From Candidatus Hadarchaeales archaeon (GTDB lineage: Archaea; Hadarchaeota; Hadarchaeia; Hadarchaeales; Hadarchaeaceae): a stretch of 12,669 nt of DNA. The stretch's first letter is position 1. Each line of letters begins with the position of its first letter. Below are positions 3,291-11,018 of the stretch, piece after piece. Position numbers and translations under genes: made by a program. A model generated the notes under the pieces. That model did not search any database. It worked only from the letters and a program-made list of their open reading frames with translations, and was not told the origin of the DNA. Where the stretch lies: contig JAWCLG010000021.1 of the NCBI GenBank assembly GCA_038851075.1, forward strand, positions 1 through 12,669, given 5' to 3'.

Positions 3291-5141
3291 ATGGAGCAAG
3301 ACCCGCTCAAGATCTACGAGGGGCGTAAAATGAGCCTTGACGAGGCCCTGGCGCTAATAAAGACCGGGGATCACATATTCATAGGTTCAGCCTGCGGCGA
3401 GCCCCAGTATCTTGTGAGGGGGCTTGTGGAAAAGGCGAGCCACCTCTCTGACAATGAGATACTCCATGTTCACACGCTTGGTGTGGCACCGTATACCGAG
3501 CCGAGGTATTCTGACAGGTTCAGGCTCAATGCATTCTTCGTGGGAACAAATGCCAGGGAGGCTGTCGCTGACGGAAGGGCTGACTACACGCCTGTTTTTC
3601 TCTCCGAACTACCGAGGCTCATCTCACGTGGTTTTGTGCCCATCGATGTGGCATTGATTCAAGTCACCCCACCCGATGAGCACGGGTTCTGTAGCCTTGG
3701 TGTTTCGGTTGAGATAACCAAGACGGCTACCAAGGTGGCCAAGCTCATAATCGCCCAAGTCAACCGCCACATGCCCAGGGTGCTCGGAGATAGCTTCATT
3801 CATGTCAGCGAGATAGACGCGGTCGTGGAGCACGATGAGCCAATTTTGGAGCTTCCTCCCTCAGAAGGCGACATAGTTTCGGACAGAATTGCCAGGTATG
3901 TTTCAGATCTGGTTGAGGATGGTTCCACTCTTCAGATAGGTATTGGCACGGTGCCGAATGCAATTCTGAGCGCCCTCATGGACAAGAAGGACCTCGGGAT
4001 CCATACTGAGCTTCTGACGGAGGGAGTGGTGGATCTCGTTGAAGAGGGAGTGGTGACCTGCGAAAAGAAGACGATAAACAGGGGCAAGATAATCGCCTCC
4101 TTTGCTATGGGCACTCGCAGGCTCTACGACTTCATAGACAACAATCCCATGGTGGAGTTCTACGAGTCAGACTATGTTAACGATCCCTTTGTAATAGGTC
4201 AGCATGAGAAAATGGTTGCGATAAATCAGGCCCTTGAGATAGACCTTACCGGGCAGGTTTGTGCCGATTCCATAGGTTACAGGTTCTACAGCGGACTTGG
4301 GGGACAGGCTGACTTCGTGCGAGGGGCTCTCAGGTCGAAGGGCGGCAAAGCGATAATGGTGTTTCCGTCCACGGCCAAAGAGGGGGAGTACTCCAGGATA
4401 AAGTCGGTCCTCAGCGAGGGGGCAGGTGTGGTTCTGACAAGAGGCGACGTGGACTATGTGGTCACAGAATATGGTGTAGCCTCCCTTAGGGGAAAGACGG
4501 TGAAGGAGCGCGCTCTTGCCCTTATAAACATAGCTCACCCAAAGTTCAGAAATCAGCTTCTTGAGTGGGCCAAGGAGAGAAAACTGATCCCTCAGGAGAT
4601 ACTCCCCTTCCCAGAGGTGGAATACCCGGAGGAGCTAAAGAGGCGGATAGTTCTCAAGGACGGCACGTCAGTCCTGCTGCGCCCAATAAAGCCTTCTGAC
4701 GCGACCCTGAAGCAGCACCTCTTCTACGCCCTTTCAAAGGAGAGCGTGACCACAAGATTCCTCGGTTCTCTGAAGGCGATGCCCATGAAAAGGGTCTGGC
4801 CTTACGTGACGGTGGATTATGAAAATGAGATGGCAATAGTTGCAACAATAGAGGAGGGAGGTGTGGAAACCATGATTGGAATAGGAAGCTATGTGAAGAT
4901 CCCGAGGACTGACACAGCAGAGGTTGCGTTCTTGGTCAGAGACGACTGGCAAAACAGGGGGCTTGGGACCCATCTTCTGAACTACATGATCGAAATAGCC
5001 TCCAAGAAGGGAATTAAGAGCCTTATAGCATGGGTTTCCGTGAACAACACGAGGATGATGCACCTCTTCAGGAAATGTGGATACCCGATGAGGTACAAGG
5101 TGGAAGGGGATCTTTATCACGTGGTGATAGATCTCAGGTGA
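3291..5141 (+). CDS. Acetyl-CoA hydrolase/CoA-transferase (family I, 4-hydroxybutyrate CoA-transferase-like) fused to a C-terminal GNAT N-acetyltransferase (616 aa)
   Basis: GRADYTPVFLSE, DVALIQVTPPDEHGFCSLGVSV, LQIGIG, LGIHTE (catalytic Glu, codon 4008-4010), DLTGQV, SGLGGQADF, VVTEYGVA, IAHPKFR. GNAT from ~4620: LKDGTSVLLRPIKPSD, DYENEMAIVA, AEVAFLVRDDWQNRGLG, NTRMMHLFRKCG. Confidence 0.92.
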   Translation: MEQDPLKIYEGRKMSLDEALALIKTGDHIFIGSACGEPQYLVRGLVEKASHLSDNEILHVHTLGVAPYTEPRYSDRFRLNAFFVGTNAREAVADGRADYTPVFLSELPRLISRGFVPIDVALIQVTPPDEHGFCSLGVSVEITKTATKVAKLIIAQVNRHMPRVLGDSFIHVSEIDAVVEHDEPILELPPSEGDIVSDRIARYVSDLVEDGSTLQIGIGTVPNAILSALMDKKDLGIHTELLTEGVVDLVEEGVVTCEKKTINRGKIIASFAMGTRRLYDFIDNNPMVEFYESDYVNDPFVIGQHEKMVAINQALEIDLTGQVCADSIGYRFYSGLGGQADFVRGALRSKGGKAIMVFPSTAKEGEYSRIKSVLSEGAGVVLTRGDVDYVVTEYGVASLRGKTVKERALALINIAHPKFRNQLLEWAKERKLIPQEILPFPEVEYPEELKRRIVLKDGTSVLLRPIKPSDATLKQHLFYALSKESVTTRFLGSLKAMPMKRVWPYVTVDYENEMAIVATIEEGGVETMIGIGSYVKIPRTDTAEVAFLVRDDWQNRGLGTHLLNYMIEIASKKGIKSLIAWVSVNNTRMMHLFRKCGYPMRYKVEGDLYHVVIDLR

Positions 5142-5142
5142 A

Positions 5143-7854
5143 CTATGCCTTTCCCAAGAATTTTTCTCCCTCAACTTCCTTCAACTTCGCAGGTAGATAT
5201 TCGTTCACCACGTATGCAAGGCCGTACTTCGCAAACGCCTGCTGTTCAGCCTTTCTTCCCAGCTCCATCATCTTCTTTATTTCAGTCTGCCAGAAATCAG
5301 TGTTGTAGCGCGGGTCCTTCTGGAGCTGCTTCAGTCGCGCTATGTCCAGCTCGCGCAGCTTGTCGGTTGGCAGGCTGTAGTTGACAATGTCGCTCGCGGT
5401 CACCCCTATGTACTTGGCGTCCGGCACCGCGAGCTCGTGGTTGATGTAGGCAAGCTTGGCGCTCCCGGAGATCACCACCATTGCTATGTGGAAGCCAAAC
5501 GGGTCTCCGTCACAGTCGCCGACCCCGATTGGGCCCAGGCCCGCTACAACCGTTTTCGTGTCCGCTACCTCCAAATCATAAACTGGGCCGTTGGGGCTCA
5601 CTTTTGATATCCTTTTCACCGGGATTAGCCCCACTCTATTTTCGACGATATGTCCAATCCTTTCTAGAATTTGCATCTGGTTTTTAATCTCCTCGAATCT
5701 CTCCGTAACCCTATAACTCTTCAGCCCGCCACACCTCCCGCCCACGACCTCAACAAATCCGTATCTTCTCAGGTGATTCAAAATTGATCTTACGCTTGAG
5801 GGATGAATACCCGGGTTGTTCGTTGAGTTGACATCAGTTATAAGTTGGGAGCTCGTGAATTCCCCCTTTCCCATCCGGGCGAGCGAGAGGAGCACTTTCG
5901 CCGTCTTCTTCAGGGGCGCTGACTGGATGATCCTTTTGAGCCTGTCATAGGAGATCCTCCCGTCCTTCCACGCTGCCGGGGGCAATAACCTGCCAAGCCG
6001 ACCCCTCAAAAGAATTCTAAGGAATCCCCGGGCTTGTGCTAAGATGTGGCTGGGAAACCTAAAGACGAATGGGTCCTTGGAAGACTTGCTCTCAGGAGTT
6101 TCTCCGCCTAAATCCCGGACGATCTTGGAAAGCAATCTCAGGGTTTTGGCGTTTGAAATCTCTATGACATAAGTTCTTCCGGGATTTTCTGTCTTCGAGG
6201 ATCGAACAGTTGCAAACCCACCCAGTTGGATGATGAGGTTCAAAATGCCCGCCGCGAGTTCCCGGCTAACTGTCTTGGCCCACAATGACCTTAGCGACCT
6301 GAAGCTGCGAACAGGCCTGTAGGAACCATCTCCTCTGAAGTATCCGCGCAGAAATTCCATCTTCAATTCGTCCGGCGCATTGAAGATGATGTCGGGCACC
6401 CTTTTGGAGTAAGCATCCTCCCCCGTTCTCAGCACCTTTTGGAAAAACTCCGCCAGAAAATTCCCGCCGAAGTTTATGGAAACCGAGCTTGGATTCGTGG
6501 GATGTGCGTGGGGTGTGCAGCCAAATATTTTTTTCACGCAGCTCATCACGTCCTCAATGTATTCTTTCTCATGTTTTCCGAAGGAGATCGTGATCTGCCC
6601 CCGGCTGATGCAGCCTTCAGCTGCAAAGTAACCGAGCAACCTGCACAGTTCTGGGGTGAGAGGCAATTTTCTCGGGAACCTCAGCTCCGATTTTCCCCAC
6701 CGCACCCAATCATCTTGCGCATGGATTTTTTTGAGGAGATCGGGTAATGCTTCGGAAATCAGGTCGAGTATATCAATTTCATGCATTCGGTTGTTGTTTG
6801 GCAGCCCGAAACAAACAGGAATCAAATCTCCCTCCTTTACCTCACAGGCCAGCCTGAACCTGAACCTCTTCCCGTCAAAAACTATCATCGGATGGTCGTC
6901 CGTTACCCTTATGGAATAGCCGCCCTCCAAAGTGATCTCATACATCTCGCTTGCGTCTTCCCGTCTGATCGCTCTAACAATCGGTTTGACGACGGGTTTT
7001 CCGTCCATCGAGAATGAAACAACCCCGCTGTCCTTGAAAACACGGAAGTTTTCTGCCACTTCCCTGACCTTCACCATTTTCAGGTTTCCATCTTTCATCA
7101 CCAGCACAGGCTCATCGCCGTGCAGGCAGAACAGGTAAACTGGTAGCCCCAACTCCTCGTTTGCCCTCTTCAGAAATCTTCTGGTGGCGCGGGCCGCCTG
7201 TCCCTTCAGCCCCACAATCAAGGCATCGAACTTCTTCCAGGCTTCCTCCTGTACAAATCTGTGGTACATACCCATCGTCTCTATCGCTATCACCCGCTTG
7301 GCCCTGCACCTCAGGAACTCCACATCATCTATGGTGGGCGGGATTGTGTAGCCTCCACGCCCGGCCTTGGTGGCATCTATTACCGCATTATCTTCCCTGA
7401 TGGTGATCTGTCCGTACACAGCCGCGCCGTCTTCCTCAGGGACCAGCCCCATGTTCTCCCTCTTGACCCCAAAGGTAGCTTCCAGATCCTCAACCATCAG
7501 ATCGGATTCGCCCTGGTCGCGAAAAGGACCGGTCTCCCACCCCTCAGCCGTGTAGTACATCTCCCTGAGAGTTGCAAACTTTTTCTGCTCGATCAGCTCC
7601 TTTGCAAACTCGGCGGTGCACAGGAGCTGGGCGAACTTTTTTACCTGCTTCATGCTGCCCGCAGTTCTGATCCCGTATCGCGGGCCGAGCACGAAGTACC
7701 CGTTCTTTTCATCGTATACTATGTTTGATGTGCTCCTTGAAGGTATCCTGAGCTTGGGTGGCTGTCCTTTTTCTATCTCCTCCAGAACGATCTTTCCGAG
7801 ATCAGCCAGCTTTTCGAGGGCCTTTTTGCCATGCGATCTCTCAGGCTTCGGCAT
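5143..7854 (-). CDS. top6A: DNA topoisomerase VI subunit A precursor containing an intein (903 aa precursor, ~365 aa spliced)
   Basis: TLREMYY (catalytic Tyr motif), ESDLMVEDLE, Toprim IAIETMG, KGQAARATRRFL, LPVYLF|CDGDPFG (DxD motif restored on intein removal), SGSAKLA, KAEQQA. Start ATG at 7854 is preceded by CAGGTG. The gene overlaps the top6B stop by 14 bp. Confidence 0.95.
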   Translation of the reverse strand: MPKPERSHGKKALEKLADLGKIVLEEIEKGQPPKLRIPSRSTSNIVYDEKNGYFVLGPRYGIRTAGSMKQVKKFAQLLCTAEFAKELIEQKKFATLREMYYTAEGWETGPFRDQGESDLMVEDLEATFGVKRENMGLVPEEDGAAVYGQITIREDNAVIDATKAGRGGYTIPPTIDDVEFLRCRAKRVIAIETMGMYHRFVQEEAWKKFDALIVGLKGQAARATRRFLKRANEELGLPVYLFCLHGDEPVLVMKDGNLKMVKVREVAENFRVFKDSGVVSFSMDGKPVVKPIVRAIRREDASEMYEITLEGGYSIRVTDDHPMIVFDGKRFRFRLACEVKEGDLIPVCFGLPNNNRMHEIDILDLISEALPDLLKKIHAQDDWVRWGKSELRFPRKLPLTPELCRLLGYFAAEGCISRGQITISFGKHEKEYIEDVMSCVKKIFGCTPHAHPTNPSSVSINFGGNFLAEFFQKVLRTGEDAYSKRVPDIIFNAPDELKMEFLRGYFRGDGSYRPVRSFRSLRSLWAKTVSRELAAGILNLIIQLGGFATVRSSKTENPGRTYVIEISNAKTLRLLSKIVRDLGGETPESKSSKDPFVFRFPSHILAQARGFLRILLRGRLGRLLPPAAWKDGRISYDRLKRIIQSAPLKKTAKVLLSLARMGKGEFTSSQLITDVNSTNNPGIHPSSVRSILNHLRRYGFVEVVGGRCGGLKSYRVTERFEEIKNQMQILERIGHIVENRVGLIPVKRISKVSPNGPVYDLEVADTKTVVAGLGPIGVGDCDGDPFGFHIAMVVISGSAKLAYINHELAVPDAKYIGVTASDIVNYSLPTDKLRELDIARLKQLQKDPRYNTDFWQTEIKKMMELGRKAEQQAFAKYGLAYVVNEYLPAKLKEVEGEKFLGKA
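5161..5167 (+). terminator. Possible archaeal oligo-T terminator for the CoA-transferase/GNAT gene
   Basis: TTTTTCT lies 20 bp after the TGA, inside the antisense 3' end of top6A. It could simply reflect Glu/Lys codons on the other strand. Confidence 0.25.
5515..7128 (-). mobile_element. Top6A intein with LAGLIDADG homing endonuclease (538 aa), atypical C-terminus Gly-Asp
   Basis: Block A CLHGDEPVLV, block B IRVTDDHPMIV, block C LLGYFAAEG (~6613-6640), block E FLRGYFRGDGS (~6322-6354), block F VYDLEVADTKTVVAG, C-terminal end IGVGD followed by Cys+1. Confidence 0.92.
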
Positions 7855-10800
7855 GGTCAACACCTGTTATCCTCTTGAGCAATGGCTTTATGTCAGGTTC
7901 CTTCATGCCGGCAAGTTTCGCGGCCTTTCGCGCGATTATGGGAAGATATCGCTCGAATATTCCGGCACGCTCCTGCTTTTCCTTGGACCTTATCTTACGA
8001 TACAGGTATTTTCTGAGCTCCCTGGCTGCCTCCATCATCGCCGCTCTTATCTCATCCACGATCTCGGGTTCGTCCGCTATTGATTGCTTGCCGGCGGAGG
8101 TGTATGGAACATAGGCCGACGATACGTTGACGAAGAGTGTGACAGGATCAGCCTCAGGATCTATGCCATATCTCCTCCAGTCAATACTTTTCGCGGCAAG
8201 CGTGATGGCGCATCCCCCCTGATCAAATATCAGGGGCGCGCGGTTCGCAAATCTCATGATGTCCATTCCAGCCTCTCCTTCCCCCTCCATGTTTTTACCT
8301 TCGAGCGGCTTTCCCGCGTTTCCCCCGTAGGCTATCCCTACCTCAACTATGAATGGCAGACCTCCCCTGTACACCTTTGGAGGACGCGTTACAACGTGCA
8401 GGAACTCCGGATTGAGTATCTGTCTCATTCCCTTTTCTATCTCCTGTGCACCAATGGGCCTGAGACCGGATGTCGGTGGGGCGAGCAGCTTTACCTGCTT
8501 AAACGCAGACACAATCCGCTCTGCCTCCTCCCATGTTAGTTCGGATGGCTTTTTTGTCTGGAGAACCCCAGCCAGCCTGCAGACTTCCCCGGCCTTGTTT
8601 TTGCTCACCCTTGAGAGTTCAGTTGAAAGAAACGTGGCAAGGTTCCGCGCCTTGGTCCTCTTTGCCAGAGTGAGCAGGTCATCCGCCATGATTCCCCACG
8701 GGTGAAGGGGCATCGGCTTTGGAACCTCAGGAACTTTATCTGTTGCGTTCTCAAAGACGGTCATTACACCATCCGGCTCCACAAATGTTATGTGGACATG
8801 CGGGTTGGCTATTGCCGTCATCTTGAGGTAGTTGAATGGACCGTATCTGGAGCGCATGTATGCGACATCCCTCACGTCAAATTCCACCCTAGTTCCCCGC
8901 CACTTTCCCCTAATTTTTTCTTTTCTGAGAACTTTGCCCTCGTTTTTATCTACGTCTATCATCACATCCATCTGGGTTATCTCACCGTCACCGGTTGACG
9001 TTGTGACCGTTGTGGGCCTGCCGCTTGTGATCTGGGCAAACATACAGGCACCGCTATTGTGGACGATCAATCCGTTTGCCACGAAATTGTGCGAGTTTTC
9101 AACCGTTAAATCATAAACATAAGGCTCGGGGGCGGGGCACATCTTTGTGTTGGTCACCTTTAACCAAATTAAATCGCTGTTGGCAATTGTTCTGAGGTAC
9201 TCTAACTCAACGCTGGGGTCATCGAGATCTTCAATAATGCCCAAGGCCTTTGTCAATGTCCCCTGTGTCATGCATTGTTTGTAAAACGAGCTCCATACCC
9301 TGCCAGGGATATCCTTGTAAGGAATTTTGTGCCAGCGATAAAGTTTCCCCACTTTGTCCTGGATACCGGGGAATAGGTCAAGATTTGTGGAGTCCAGTTT
9401 TATTGACTTGATAAACTTTTGGAGCAACTCCCGCTTCCTTCGAGATGTGAACCCTATGGTATTGGCAAATCTGGTGAGATTTTCTTTCCCACTTATAACC
9501 AGCTGATAGCTTAATTTATCCTTTTTTCTGTTCTCCCTAAATCTGGAGATGATCCCAAACCGTAACAACAACAGAACCGTTTTTTCCACCACTTCCCGGC
9601 TCATCAGACCGAAAGTGACTTCGCGATAGGGTCGAGAGAGCCCACCGTCCGTATCGAATAAACCACGGAGATATGCTTTGACCAAATCGTCTGAAAGATT
9701 CAACACTTGCTCGGGCAGATGTAGGGATGTTGTTTTGTCACCAGGGGGGACCCCAAAATAGTTCAGGATTTCTGCCACGATTGATGACGAAGTCTCCAAC
9801 GTGAAATTACCGACTCTTTCATCGAAGTACTCCCTTGCTTCTAGACCGAACAGCTCTCTGAGGGCTTTCTTCATTCTGTTTACCAGTTCTTTGTCCTTAT
9901 TGTGGAAAAACAGGCTATAACCCCATCTGTTGTCGGTGGGGCTCCCGACGTGGCCATCCCCCGCCATCGCCCCAACAAACCACATCAGCTCTGCGTTCAC
10001 GCGGGGGGGTATGTTCACATACGATCCATTTCGACCTATTCGGGTTATCAAATCTGAGATCTCGGTTATCCCGTTTTCTTTGGCGAGAATTTTGAACTCT
10101 GCAAGGGTTGGTCTGCCGTGCGGGTTTCCATTCGGCATTTTCCTGCTCCAGCTTCTAAGCCGTCCGTAGGAGATCCCCAATTGTTTTGACGCTTTTCTGA
10201 GGCTCCCGTGTTTCTTTTTGATGGCATTGACAAACTTCGACGTAAGCTCCGGCAAGTCCACCCGGAGACCATCTTTTTTCAGAATATCCAAAGTTCGCAG
10301 TTCGTTGATGGCAGGCGTTACGGGCAGGCGCCTTGCGGCAGCTATGAACATGCCCCTCTTCACATCCCTTGCCTCGATCCATGTTGGTTCTCCTTCGCGG
10401 AGGACCAGAACAGGATTTTCTGGTGTTAGCCTGATCTTTCTTCCGGTCAAGACTTTTAATTCCACCATCTGACTGGGAGCAGGAATTTTCCAACACTTCA
10501 CGATTTTCGTCCCTCGTAATCTGAGGTCTTGTCCCAAAGCGATAACTTCAGAGTTTCTCATGTCGCTGGCAACTATATCGGCAATTCGTTTGATCGAACC
10601 GTCAGAGAGAGGCACATAGGTGTCGCCAGTCATGCAGACGCCAATGCCCTGTTGTCCGCGTTGCTGTTGGTGCCGATGCAGCTTCGTCCCCGCGAGCATC
10701 TTGCCGAACACATCCGGGATGAACTTCTCCGGGATTCCAGAGGCGTTGTCCTCAAGCACCACCCTGAAGTGTTCTGGGTCGTCGTTGACCTTTTTGATGG

Positions 10801-10990
10801 CAACGTATACCTTGGGTAGGATCCCCATCTCCTCGCTGGCGTCAATGGAATTGGTCACCCCTTCGTGGATTATTGTAGTGAGGGACCTGATCTTTCCCGT
10901 ATACCCAAGCATTGCGGCGTTCTTCCTGAAGAACTCGCTGACGCTGTGCTCCCTGAACTCCTTGAAAAGCTCATCCGCAGCGCTTTTCAT
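7841..10990 (-). CDS. top6B: DNA topoisomerase VI subunit B precursor containing an intein (~1049 aa precursor, ~522 aa spliced). Alternative start at 11014.
   Basis: SVSEFFRKNAAMLGY, GHKL N-box HEGVTNSIDA, EDNASGIP, FGKMLAGTK, RGQQGIGV|SGACMFAQ, GTRVEF, IANPH, H2TH region, RFANRAPL, VPYTSAGKQSIA (transducer Lys). ATG 10990 is preferred because of the GGGGA SD-like motif and promoter spacing. Confidence 0.94.
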   Translation of the reverse strand: MKSAADELFKEFREHSVSEFFRKNAAMLGYTGKIRSLTTIIHEGVTNSIDASEEMGILPKVYVAIKKVNDDPEHFRVVLEDNASGIPEKFIPDVFGKMLAGTKLHRHQQQRGQQGIGVCMTGDTYVPLSDGSIKRIADIVASDMRNSEVIALGQDLRLRGTKIVKCWKIPAPSQMVELKVLTGRKIRLTPENPVLVLREGEPTWIEARDVKRGMFIAAARRLPVTPAINELRTLDILKKDGLRVDLPELTSKFVNAIKKKHGSLRKASKQLGISYGRLRSWSRKMPNGNPHGRPTLAEFKILAKENGITEISDLITRIGRNGSYVNIPPRVNAELMWFVGAMAGDGHVGSPTDNRWGYSLFFHNKDKELVNRMKKALRELFGLEAREYFDERVGNFTLETSSSIVAEILNYFGVPPGDKTTSLHLPEQVLNLSDDLVKAYLRGLFDTDGGLSRPYREVTFGLMSREVVEKTVLLLLRFGIISRFRENRKKDKLSYQLVISGKENLTRFANTIGFTSRRKRELLQKFIKSIKLDSTNLDLFPGIQDKVGKLYRWHKIPYKDIPGRVWSSFYKQCMTQGTLTKALGIIEDLDDPSVELEYLRTIANSDLIWLKVTNTKMCPAPEPYVYDLTVENSHNFVANGLIVHNSGACMFAQITSGRPTTVTTSTGDGEITQMDVMIDVDKNEGKVLRKEKIRGKWRGTRVEFDVRDVAYMRSRYGPFNYLKMTAIANPHVHITFVEPDGVMTVFENATDKVPEVPKPMPLHPWGIMADDLLTLAKRTKARNLATFLSTELSRVSKNKAGEVCRLAGVLQTKKPSELTWEEAERIVSAFKQVKLLAPPTSGLRPIGAQEIEKGMRQILNPEFLHVVTRPPKVYRGGLPFIVEVGIAYGGNAGKPLEGKNMEGEGEAGMDIMRFANRAPLIFDQGGCAITLAAKSIDWRRYGIDPEADPVTLFVNVSSAYVPYTSAGKQSIADEPEIVDEIRAAMMEAARELRKYLYRKIRSKEKQERAGIFERYLPIIARKAAKLAGMKEPDIKPLLKRITGVDHAEA
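9056..10636 (-). mobile_element. Top6B intein with LAGLIDADG homing endonuclease (527 aa)
   Basis: Block A CMTGDTYVPLSDG, block B IRLTPENPVLV, block C WFVGAMAGDG, block E YLRGLFDTDGG, blocks F/G VYDLTVENSHNFVANGLIVHN followed by Ser+1. Inserted directly after the ATP-lid GQQGIG motif. Confidence 0.95.
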
Positions 10991-11018
10991 GCTTTCCCCG
11001 TTAGAATTTCTCATCCTA

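Follow-up and report, generated by a model that had tools for sequence, protein, structure and literature searches.

A precedent for an intein that ends in Asp is the ribonucleotide reductase (RIR1) intein of Carboxydothermus hydrogenoformans (Chy), which was reported to splice by Amitai, Dassa and Pietrokovski (2004, J Biol Chem 279:3121); every substitution of this terminal Asp that was tried reportedly abolished splicing and gave N- and C-terminal cleavage. A candidate for comparable chemistry lies in the stretch of DNA analyzed here (the window), which comprises 12,669 nucleotides and is the entire contig C21 of an archaeal metagenome-assembled genome (MAG; G000, 1.0 Mb in 29 contigs, 88% complete). 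Its minus strand carries an operon in which top6B lies upstream of top6A, the gene for DNA topoisomerase VI subunit A, with an overlap of 23 nucleotides, and LAGLIDADG inteins interrupt both genes. The Top6A intein ends in Gly-Asp↓Cys (the arrow marks the splice junction here and below), and the residues of the canonical, Asn-type third splicing step are all missing: Asp783, Gly782 and Lys770 stand in their places. From the sequence comparisons set out below, we consider it likely that this is a splicing-competent class-1 intein whose branched intermediate would be resolved by Asp cyclization without the help of histidines, and we favor adaptation over decay.

Departures of this kind have been described before. 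According to the 2014 review PMC4031507, Asp, Gln and Glu ends can cyclize as a variant of step 3, approximately 5% of functional inteins have no penultimate His, and the His residues at positions F:13 and G:6 are dispensable in some inteins. The block-F His, F:13 in that source, was assigned here by alignment column rather than by numbering. We found no account of an Asp-ended Top6A intein in the main texts searched, and supplementary or InBase-type tables may list some. In the text covered, Novikova et al. (PMC4760082) name Top6B but not Top6A inteins, and Villain et al. (PMC9348778) mention inteins only as having been removed from Top6A/B. The relevant portions of PMC11842431, PMC10804359 and PMC8529194 hold nothing specific on Asp-ended Top6A inteins.

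The host protein is identified by the domains PF04406, PF20768 and PF21180 (TP6A_N/5Y-CAP plus Toprim) and by its operon with top6B, and Pfam profiles along the precursor report TP6A_N, Topo_VI_alpha, a split TOP6A-Spo11_Toprim, Intein_splicing and LAGLIDADG_3. The database copy of the precursor (P0003) begins at an ATG three codons downstream of the GTG used here and has 903 amino acids. Excision of the intein gives LPVYLF↓CDGDPFG, the exact reading of an uninterrupted ortholog on contig C3 of the same bin, and the host motif that the original prediction had expected to be restored is thereby confirmed. Its claim of a Gly-Asp↓Cys end lacking both C-terminal histidines also stands, in that the minus strand from 5520 to 5500 reads ggc gac tgt gac gga gac ccg (G-D-C-D-G-D-P) and Lys770 occupies block F. 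Alternative borders were considered and rejected. The host motif contains one Cys and the precursor two, and the borders are unambiguous because a nucleophile stands at both position 1 and position +1 only with the Cys...Asp↓Cys cut. None of the other reading frames at the C-terminal junction contains His-Asn. The insertion point lies in the Toprim domain, immediately before the metal-binding Asp-x-Asp.

All residues expected of a class-1 intein are present, namely Cys1, the +1 Cys, the block B Thr-x-x-His and the block F Asp (F:4). The splicing-domain profile PF14890 matches the intein with an E value of 1.3e-12 (48.3 bits, cut-off 35.8), and the endonuclease profile PF14528 matches with an E value of 1.1e-14; two LAGLIDADG motifs with their acidic residues predict a nuclease. 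An AlphaFold2 (AF2) model of the intein has a mean predicted local distance difference test score (pLDDT) of 87 and a predicted template modeling score (pTM) of 0.87, and its top Foldseek matches are the TliVMA intein (7qss), PI-PkoII (2cw7) and PI-PfuI (1dq3), with E values from 4e-21 to 1e-15. The neighboring Top6B intein, which at the corresponding place reads VYDLTVENSHNFVANGLIVHN↓S, is canonical and serves as an internal control.

A plausible course of the reaction can be sketched. Steps 1 and 2 (the N-S shift and trans-thioesterification) would use the retained Cys1, Thr-x-x-His, block F Asp (F:4) and +1 Cys. In step 3 the side-chain carboxylate of Asp783 would close onto the main-chain carbonyl of the same residue, so that a cyclic anhydride forms and the amine of the C-extein is freed. 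This step would proceed without the block-F and penultimate histidines; a carboxylate does not have to be deprotonated by the block-F His. Lys770 might orient the carboxylate, form an ion pair with it, or protonate the leaving amine, and an S-N shift after anhydride formation would complete ligation. A high growth temperature, in keeping with the hot-spring label of the metagenome, may reduce the need for catalysis.

An obvious concern is that unusual terminal codons could reflect an error in the assembly of a MAG of low depth. A 3007-nucleotide Logan contig from the public sequencing run X1 (labeled hot springs metagenome), where sequence words of this region have a depth of approximately 5-10, spans window positions 3738-6744 and differs from the window at six positions (4357, 4385, 4835, 5551, 6181 and 6406). 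Three of these differences fall within the Top6A intein, and all three are synonymous. The codons of Lys770, Gly782, Asp783 and Cys784 are identical in the two sequences. X1 may be the source sample of the window, yet it was separately assembled; the GAC codon at 5515-5517, which the original prediction wished to see confirmed in the reads, is thus reproduced, which speaks strongly against an assembly slip. The runs of two studies hold near-identical sequence. No RNA run is among the sequencing runs listed as holding the sequence, and X1 contains no joint that skips the top6A intein.

A more intricate matter is a second top6BA operon in the bin, without inteins, on contig C3. Over its entire length the window shows synteny with C3:57486-66866, with a nucleotide identity of 68-77%. 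A second genome (G001), which represents another species of the same genus and is 86% complete, clarifies this arrangement: the window begins with 1097 nucleotides that correspond to the end of its contig C2 and finishes with 876 that correspond to the start of its contig C33, both at 99.8%, whereas the remainder of these two contigs is collinear with C3 at approximately 71%. Given the end matches and this collinearity, we regard C21 as the G001-type ortholog of the C3 region and the two top6A copies as orthologs from two co-binned species. The second, intein-free operon is, on this comparison of contigs, a binning artifact that belongs to the other sister species. The original prediction had raised a second intact top6A as a sign that the intein-bearing copy might be dead; such a gene is formally present in the bin, but a mis-binned contig of a sister species explains it. 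Several other small contigs likewise repeat stretches of larger contigs, with 67-97% identity (C14, C20/C23, C24/C25, C26, C27 and the end of C8). The contamination estimate for G000, 0.21%, fails to reveal the two-species mix, which matters to anyone counting gene copies.

No other top6A was found in G001 at its 86% completeness, and neither G000 nor G001 has a match to GyrA. When 40 relatives were searched, 38 of the 39 with a match had one top6A locus, which is uninterrupted, with reading frames of 360-376 amino acids. The remaining genome (G040, of the same order) has two loci, on contigs C104 and C10, which share 81% and 71% identity with the C3 protein, and it may be another mixed bin. 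By these searches, the intein-bearing top6A would be the sole type II topoisomerase subunit A found in its own organism. Since no type II topoisomerase other than topoisomerase VI was found, the cell seems to rely on an intein without the three textbook residues of step 3.

The sequence of the host gene indicates that it remains under selection rather than drifting. The changes in the exteins that can be assigned to the time after the split between C21 and C3 number nine on each branch, and each of the two exteins deviates at one of the 206 columns in which 14 other Top6A proteins are all alike. Moreover, the distance of the C21 extein to the outgroups is equal to, or smaller than, that of the C3 extein. 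Conservation within the intein was judged from 17 full-length sequences at the same site, by the columns in which no more than one of the other 16 differs. In the endonuclease and linker, the window intein retains all 52 of these columns. In contrast, 14 of 33 in the splicing domain are changed (nine of 19 in the N-terminal part and five of 14 in the C-terminal part): D3H, I21V, A36V, V39F, H56R, S80P, P91F, K92R, V109L, L494I, H525K, F527V, G529A and N538D. Eight of these changes are conservative swaps. Other members deviate at zero to five splicing-domain columns per part; P0018 alone approaches the level of the window intein, but its deviations are spread evenly over all domains.

These patterns are best accommodated by a lineage-specific remodeling that affected the splicing domain only, while the endonuclease and the host were strictly constrained, and such a combination argues for an active site that has shifted rather than for a dead intein in an essential gene. 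We also considered whether the splicing domain had been recombined in from a foreign intein. The identities to P0004 by part (38% for the N-terminal part, 55% for the endonuclease, 46% for the linker and 45% for the C-terminal part) fit acceleration instead.

The immediate relatives of the intein were sought on a broad scale. Twenty-five Top6A proteins carry a homologous intein; 18 of these inteins share the insertion site and seven sit further downstream in Toprim. A penultimate His is found in 19 of them, a Lys in four and a Ser in two. A protein search in which the best 8000 candidates by shared words were scored gave no relative above 46% identity, and none above 38% was found among 1.84 billion representatives. 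The intein is absent from all 65 genomes of the archaeal class; a scan of GTDB genome contigs yielded three distant loci, and a scan of metagenome contigs gave no relative. Within an otherwise Asn-ended family, the allele appears to result from a recent, independent switch from Asn to Asp. Some same-site members are non-canonical in another manner: in P0014-P0016 and P0019, the His of block B gives way to Gln (VTSSQS or VTASQS), and Lys is penultimate (QLKN↓T). The second insertion site, deeper in Toprim, is occupied in P0020, P0021, P0024, P0025 and P0027-P0029, with the reading ...GV(W/Y/T)A↓SVTGDEP ... LHN↓SDI... and source names of Thaumarchaeota/Nitrososphaerota; P0020 and P0021 have two intein C-termini apiece.

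Asp-ended inteins do occur elsewhere. Among 178 inteins of the collected proteins whose C-termini could be surveyed (203 hits, less 25 left out as unaligned at the last profile position), 175 end in Asn and three in Asp. Both histidines are missing in all three Asp-ended inteins versus three of the 175 Asn-ended ones; the block-F His is present in 74 of the 178 and hence is weakly conserved in general. One of the three, P0117, is hosted by a radical-SAM protein and is a singleton without close relatives, and so adds no evidence of conservation. Another, P0090, belongs to a clade of 17 inteins in FlaI/TadA/VirB11-like ATPases (P0090, P0218-P0232 and P0173), which are 46-79% identical. Every one starts with Cys and ends in Phe-Asp↓Thr, and the block-F column holds Lys in 14 and Thr in three. 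Uninterrupted hosts read GP(T/S)(F/I)↓(T/S)IRKF, which fixes the intein border of this clade. Source names for two of them are Pacearchaeota and Nanoarchaeota, and several of the proteins contain two or three inteins.

A further example resides in the same bin. The TFB (TFIIB) gene at G000:C27:544-1995 on the plus strand (locus L042) contains a 484-residue LAGLIDADG intein ending PECKNFIAGRGWLLAFD↓TIHDKG, with a Phe-Asp↓Thr end and Lys in the column of the block-F His. Contig C27 is G001-like, its flanks being 99% and 96% identical to G001:C43, and the G001 allele of TFB is intein-free. Synonymous differences between the two alleles cluster within approximately 55 nucleotides of the insertion point, as would be expected of a homing or co-conversion tract. 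Eleven TFB inteins occupy one site in the 65 genomes of the class, and seven of them end in Asp, a proportion that, along with the Asp, Gln and Glu ends noted in PMC4031507, shows the original view of Asp ends as very rare to have been overstated. These seven (in G000:C27, G041, G030, G023, G025, G032 and G013) comprise three Phe-Asp, three Arg-Asp and one Lys-Asp ends in four families, with identities of 44-70% apart from one pair at 95%; the four Asn-ended ones comprise two His-Asn and two Ser-Asn ends. The TFB loci other than that on C27 are L051-L060 (G041, G030, G023, G025, G032, G013, G018, G028, G022 and G012), and the G018 intein is shorter, at 340 amino acids.

Lys in the block-F column, as in the Top6A intein, is also seen in the ATPase clade and in three of the TFB inteins. 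Furthermore, the sampled Asp-ended inteins (the 17 ATPase members from DPANN archaea, the seven from TFB, P0117 and Top6A) never have a penultimate His. Their conservation in this archaeal lineage, of which TFB is the case in point, implies that Asp-ended inteins without this residue are probably functional there. We found no description of the Asp-ended TFB or ATPase clades in the main texts searched.

How do other explanations fare against these observations? It strikes us as unlikely that step 3 was recently lost and that splicing is defective or badly impaired, which would make the top6A allele a pseudogene in the making or a deleterious variant in the metagenome. This reading draws on the three step-3 residues, all of which differ from those of every one of the 25 homologs, on the number of conserved splicing-domain columns that have changed, and on the lack of an Asp-ended state in any close relative. 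However, the exteins show no relaxation in either of the tallies given above, the endonuclease is fully conserved, the reading frame is intact in the only top6A found in the organism, near-identical sequence recurs in two studies, and the lineage has other, conserved inteins that end in Asp. The changes from His to Lys and from His to Gly need two base changes each, and therefore do not represent one recent slip. The sequence is also compatible with cleavage at one or both junctions without ligation, such that Top6A would persist as two non-covalent pieces, or with a tolerated unspliced precursor, and the cleavage reported for the Chy intein with a substituted terminal Asp gives this idea some appeal. 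We judge it quite improbable, given that the insertion directly precedes the Toprim Asp-x-Asp in the core of the fold, that both ligation residues (Cys1 and the +1 Cys) are kept, and that the relatives have single open reading frames with no split Top6A among them.

Two remaining explanations concern the DNA rather than the chemistry. If the interrupted gene were a dead paralog backed by the operon on C3, the presence of two top6A loci in the bin and the synteny of the window with C3 would follow; the idea is very hard to sustain when both window ends join G001 contigs that are collinear with C3, nearly all relatives have a single locus, and the C21 and C3 copies are equally constrained. An assembly or sequencing error in the terminal codons is scarcely credible. 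Nothing was found in its favor, although the MAG is of low depth. The separate X1 assembly agrees with the window in the Lys, Gly, Asp and Cys codons, and three separate codons are concerned, two of them by two base changes, with no frame at the junction that gives His-Asn.

Several points do weigh against splicing by Asp cyclization. Every one of the 25 Top6A-hosted homologs has the block-F His and a terminal Asn, so that one half of the outcome that the original prediction regarded as damaging (close homologs that all end in Asn, together with an allele that does not splice) is what the tabulation revealed. The three closest, P0004-P0006 from metagenomes, have inteins 44-46% and exteins 82-88% identical to those of the window (87.7% for the P0004 exteins), and they end HTFVGGLGPI(V/I)QHN↓CDGDPFG. 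The Asp-ended Top6A allele is a singleton in the collections searched. Its penultimate Gly is unlike the Phe, Arg or Lys of other Asp-ended inteins, and the singleton status of P0117 hints that some Asp-ended alleles may be short-lived. The Asn-to-Asp change could be the latest substitution and an inactivating one, and the changes in the splicing domain would be equally expected from relaxed constraint on splicing. With G001 at its present completeness, a second top6A or a gyrase may exist outside the assembly. Finally, splicing itself is a prediction from sequence comparison.

On balance, the proposal that an adapted step 3 operates in the Top6A intein, which the original prediction had preferred to decay, remains the favored one on sequence grounds, with the sole and constrained host gene, the conserved endonuclease and the Asp-ended clades speaking for it. 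A broader scheme is more tentative, and we would sooner doubt it than rely on it: Asp-ended inteins, frequent in a thermophilic archaeal class and in DPANN archaea, may form a distinct and stable mechanistic subclass instead of a scatter of oddities. The Top6A intein would have joined it by a recent, independent switch from Asn/His to Asp, with compensatory remodeling throughout the splicing domain and an unaltered endonuclease, possibly using heat-assisted anhydride chemistry.

The coordinates of the operon and of the intein motifs are collected in Table 1. The neighbors of the operon code for an RND-type transporter, a CoA-transferase/acetyltransferase fusion, an ADP-forming acyl-CoA ligase and a DRTGG/CBS protein. 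The fusion protein (positions 3291-5141, plus strand, 616 amino acids) is CoA-transferase-like at residues 7-429 and resembles GNAT/Pat acetyltransferases at residues 453-598. In the top6B region, an X1 contig joins position 8969 to 10680, skipping 1710 nucleotides with a shorter side of 35 nucleotides. The borders of the top6B intein (9056-10636) differ from this joint, which probably marks a piece from a related organism.

Table 1. Positions in the window of the two topoisomerase genes and of the parts and motifs of the Top6A intein (precursor numbering of residues unless stated).
Feature	Position	Strand	Remarks
top6B with canonical intein	7841..11014	-	intein residues 127-653, window 10636..9056, ends NSHNFVANGLIVHN↓S
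top6A (DNA topoisomerase VI subunit A) precursor reading frame	5143..7863	-	906 codons from GTG 7863
N-extein, residues 1-245, ends LPVYLF	7129..7863	-	88% amino acid identity to C3 ortholog
Top6A intein, 538 amino acids, Cys1 to Asp538 (precursor residues 246-783)	5515..7128	-	starts CLHGDEP
Cys1 codon TGC (Cys246), N-terminal nucleophile	7126..7128	-	
Block B Thr-Asp-Asp-His (T321...H324; RVTDDH), kept	6892..6903	-	
LAGLIDADG homing endonuclease core	6325..6639	-	motif 1 LLGYFAAEG 6613-6639, motif 2 FLRGYFRGDG 6325-6354
Block F VYDLEVADTKTVVAG	5539..5583	-	Asp763 (F:4) kept; Lys770 AAA 5554-5556 in His column
Block G LGPIGVGD	5515..5538	-	penultimate Gly782 GGC 5518-5520, terminal Asp783 GAC 5515-5517
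C-extein including stop	5143..5514	-	+1 Cys784 TGT 5512-5514, then Toprim Asp-Gly-Asp 5503-5511

If the Top6A intein splices as proposed, chemists who work on inteins would gain a natural Cys/Cys intein from a thermophile whose C-terminal cleavage uses Asp and needs no histidine. Its canonical relative at the same site, in exteins that are 88% identical, would make a natural before-and-after pair between which residues could be swapped. Such a pair may help in understanding the catalysis of step 3 and could find use in cleavage tags controlled by pH or temperature. The conserved Asp ends of the TFB and ATPase inteins suggest, in addition, that the variant is under-appreciated in archaea.

Among solved archaeal inteins that contain a homing endonuclease, TliVMA (7qss), PI-PkoII (2cw7) and PI-PfuI (1dq3) share the HINT and LAGLIDADG folds with the model of the Top6A intein at 14-16% sequence identity, and the Pab PolII intein (PDB 2lcj) gives a weak sequence match to the N-terminal part of the Top6A intein. 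The Gln-ended inteins of Pol II in Pyrococcus abyssi and Methanoculleus marisnigri and of ribonucleotide reductase in Chilo iridescent virus are alike in that a non-Asn end cyclizes, but the residue is Gln rather than Asp. Such inteins are read, in section 6 of PMC4031507, as stages of active-site re-optimization after the loss of a catalytic residue.

The same-site Top6A inteins (P0004-P0006 and the Micrarchaeota-type P0007-P0019) share the insertion point and architecture of the window intein. Unlike it, with its Lys and Gly-Asp, they have the block-F His and end in (Gln/Leu)-His-Asn, Lys-Asn or Ser-Asn, and they lack the deviations at its 14 departing splicing-domain columns. The Asp-ended TFB inteins agree with it in the Asp end, the missing penultimate His, the block B Thr-x-x-His and the LAGLIDADG endonuclease; they differ in Ser1 and the +1 Thr, in the host and in belonging to lineages that are conserved, the Top6A allele being a Cys/Cys singleton. 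The ATPase inteins of DPANN archaea share Cys1, the terminal Asp and, in 14 of 17, the block-F Lys; host, +1 Thr and penultimate Phe set them apart, and no kinship beyond the family level is evident. The Chy RIR1 intein is reportedly likewise a class-1 type with an Asp end from a thermophile, for which Asp cyclization or a variant thereof was proposed; its host is a ribonucleotide reductase and its source a bacterium. An Asp-ended kind of intein is therefore already known, and what the present one adds is a new host gene, a Gly at the penultimate position and an origin within an otherwise Asn-ended family.

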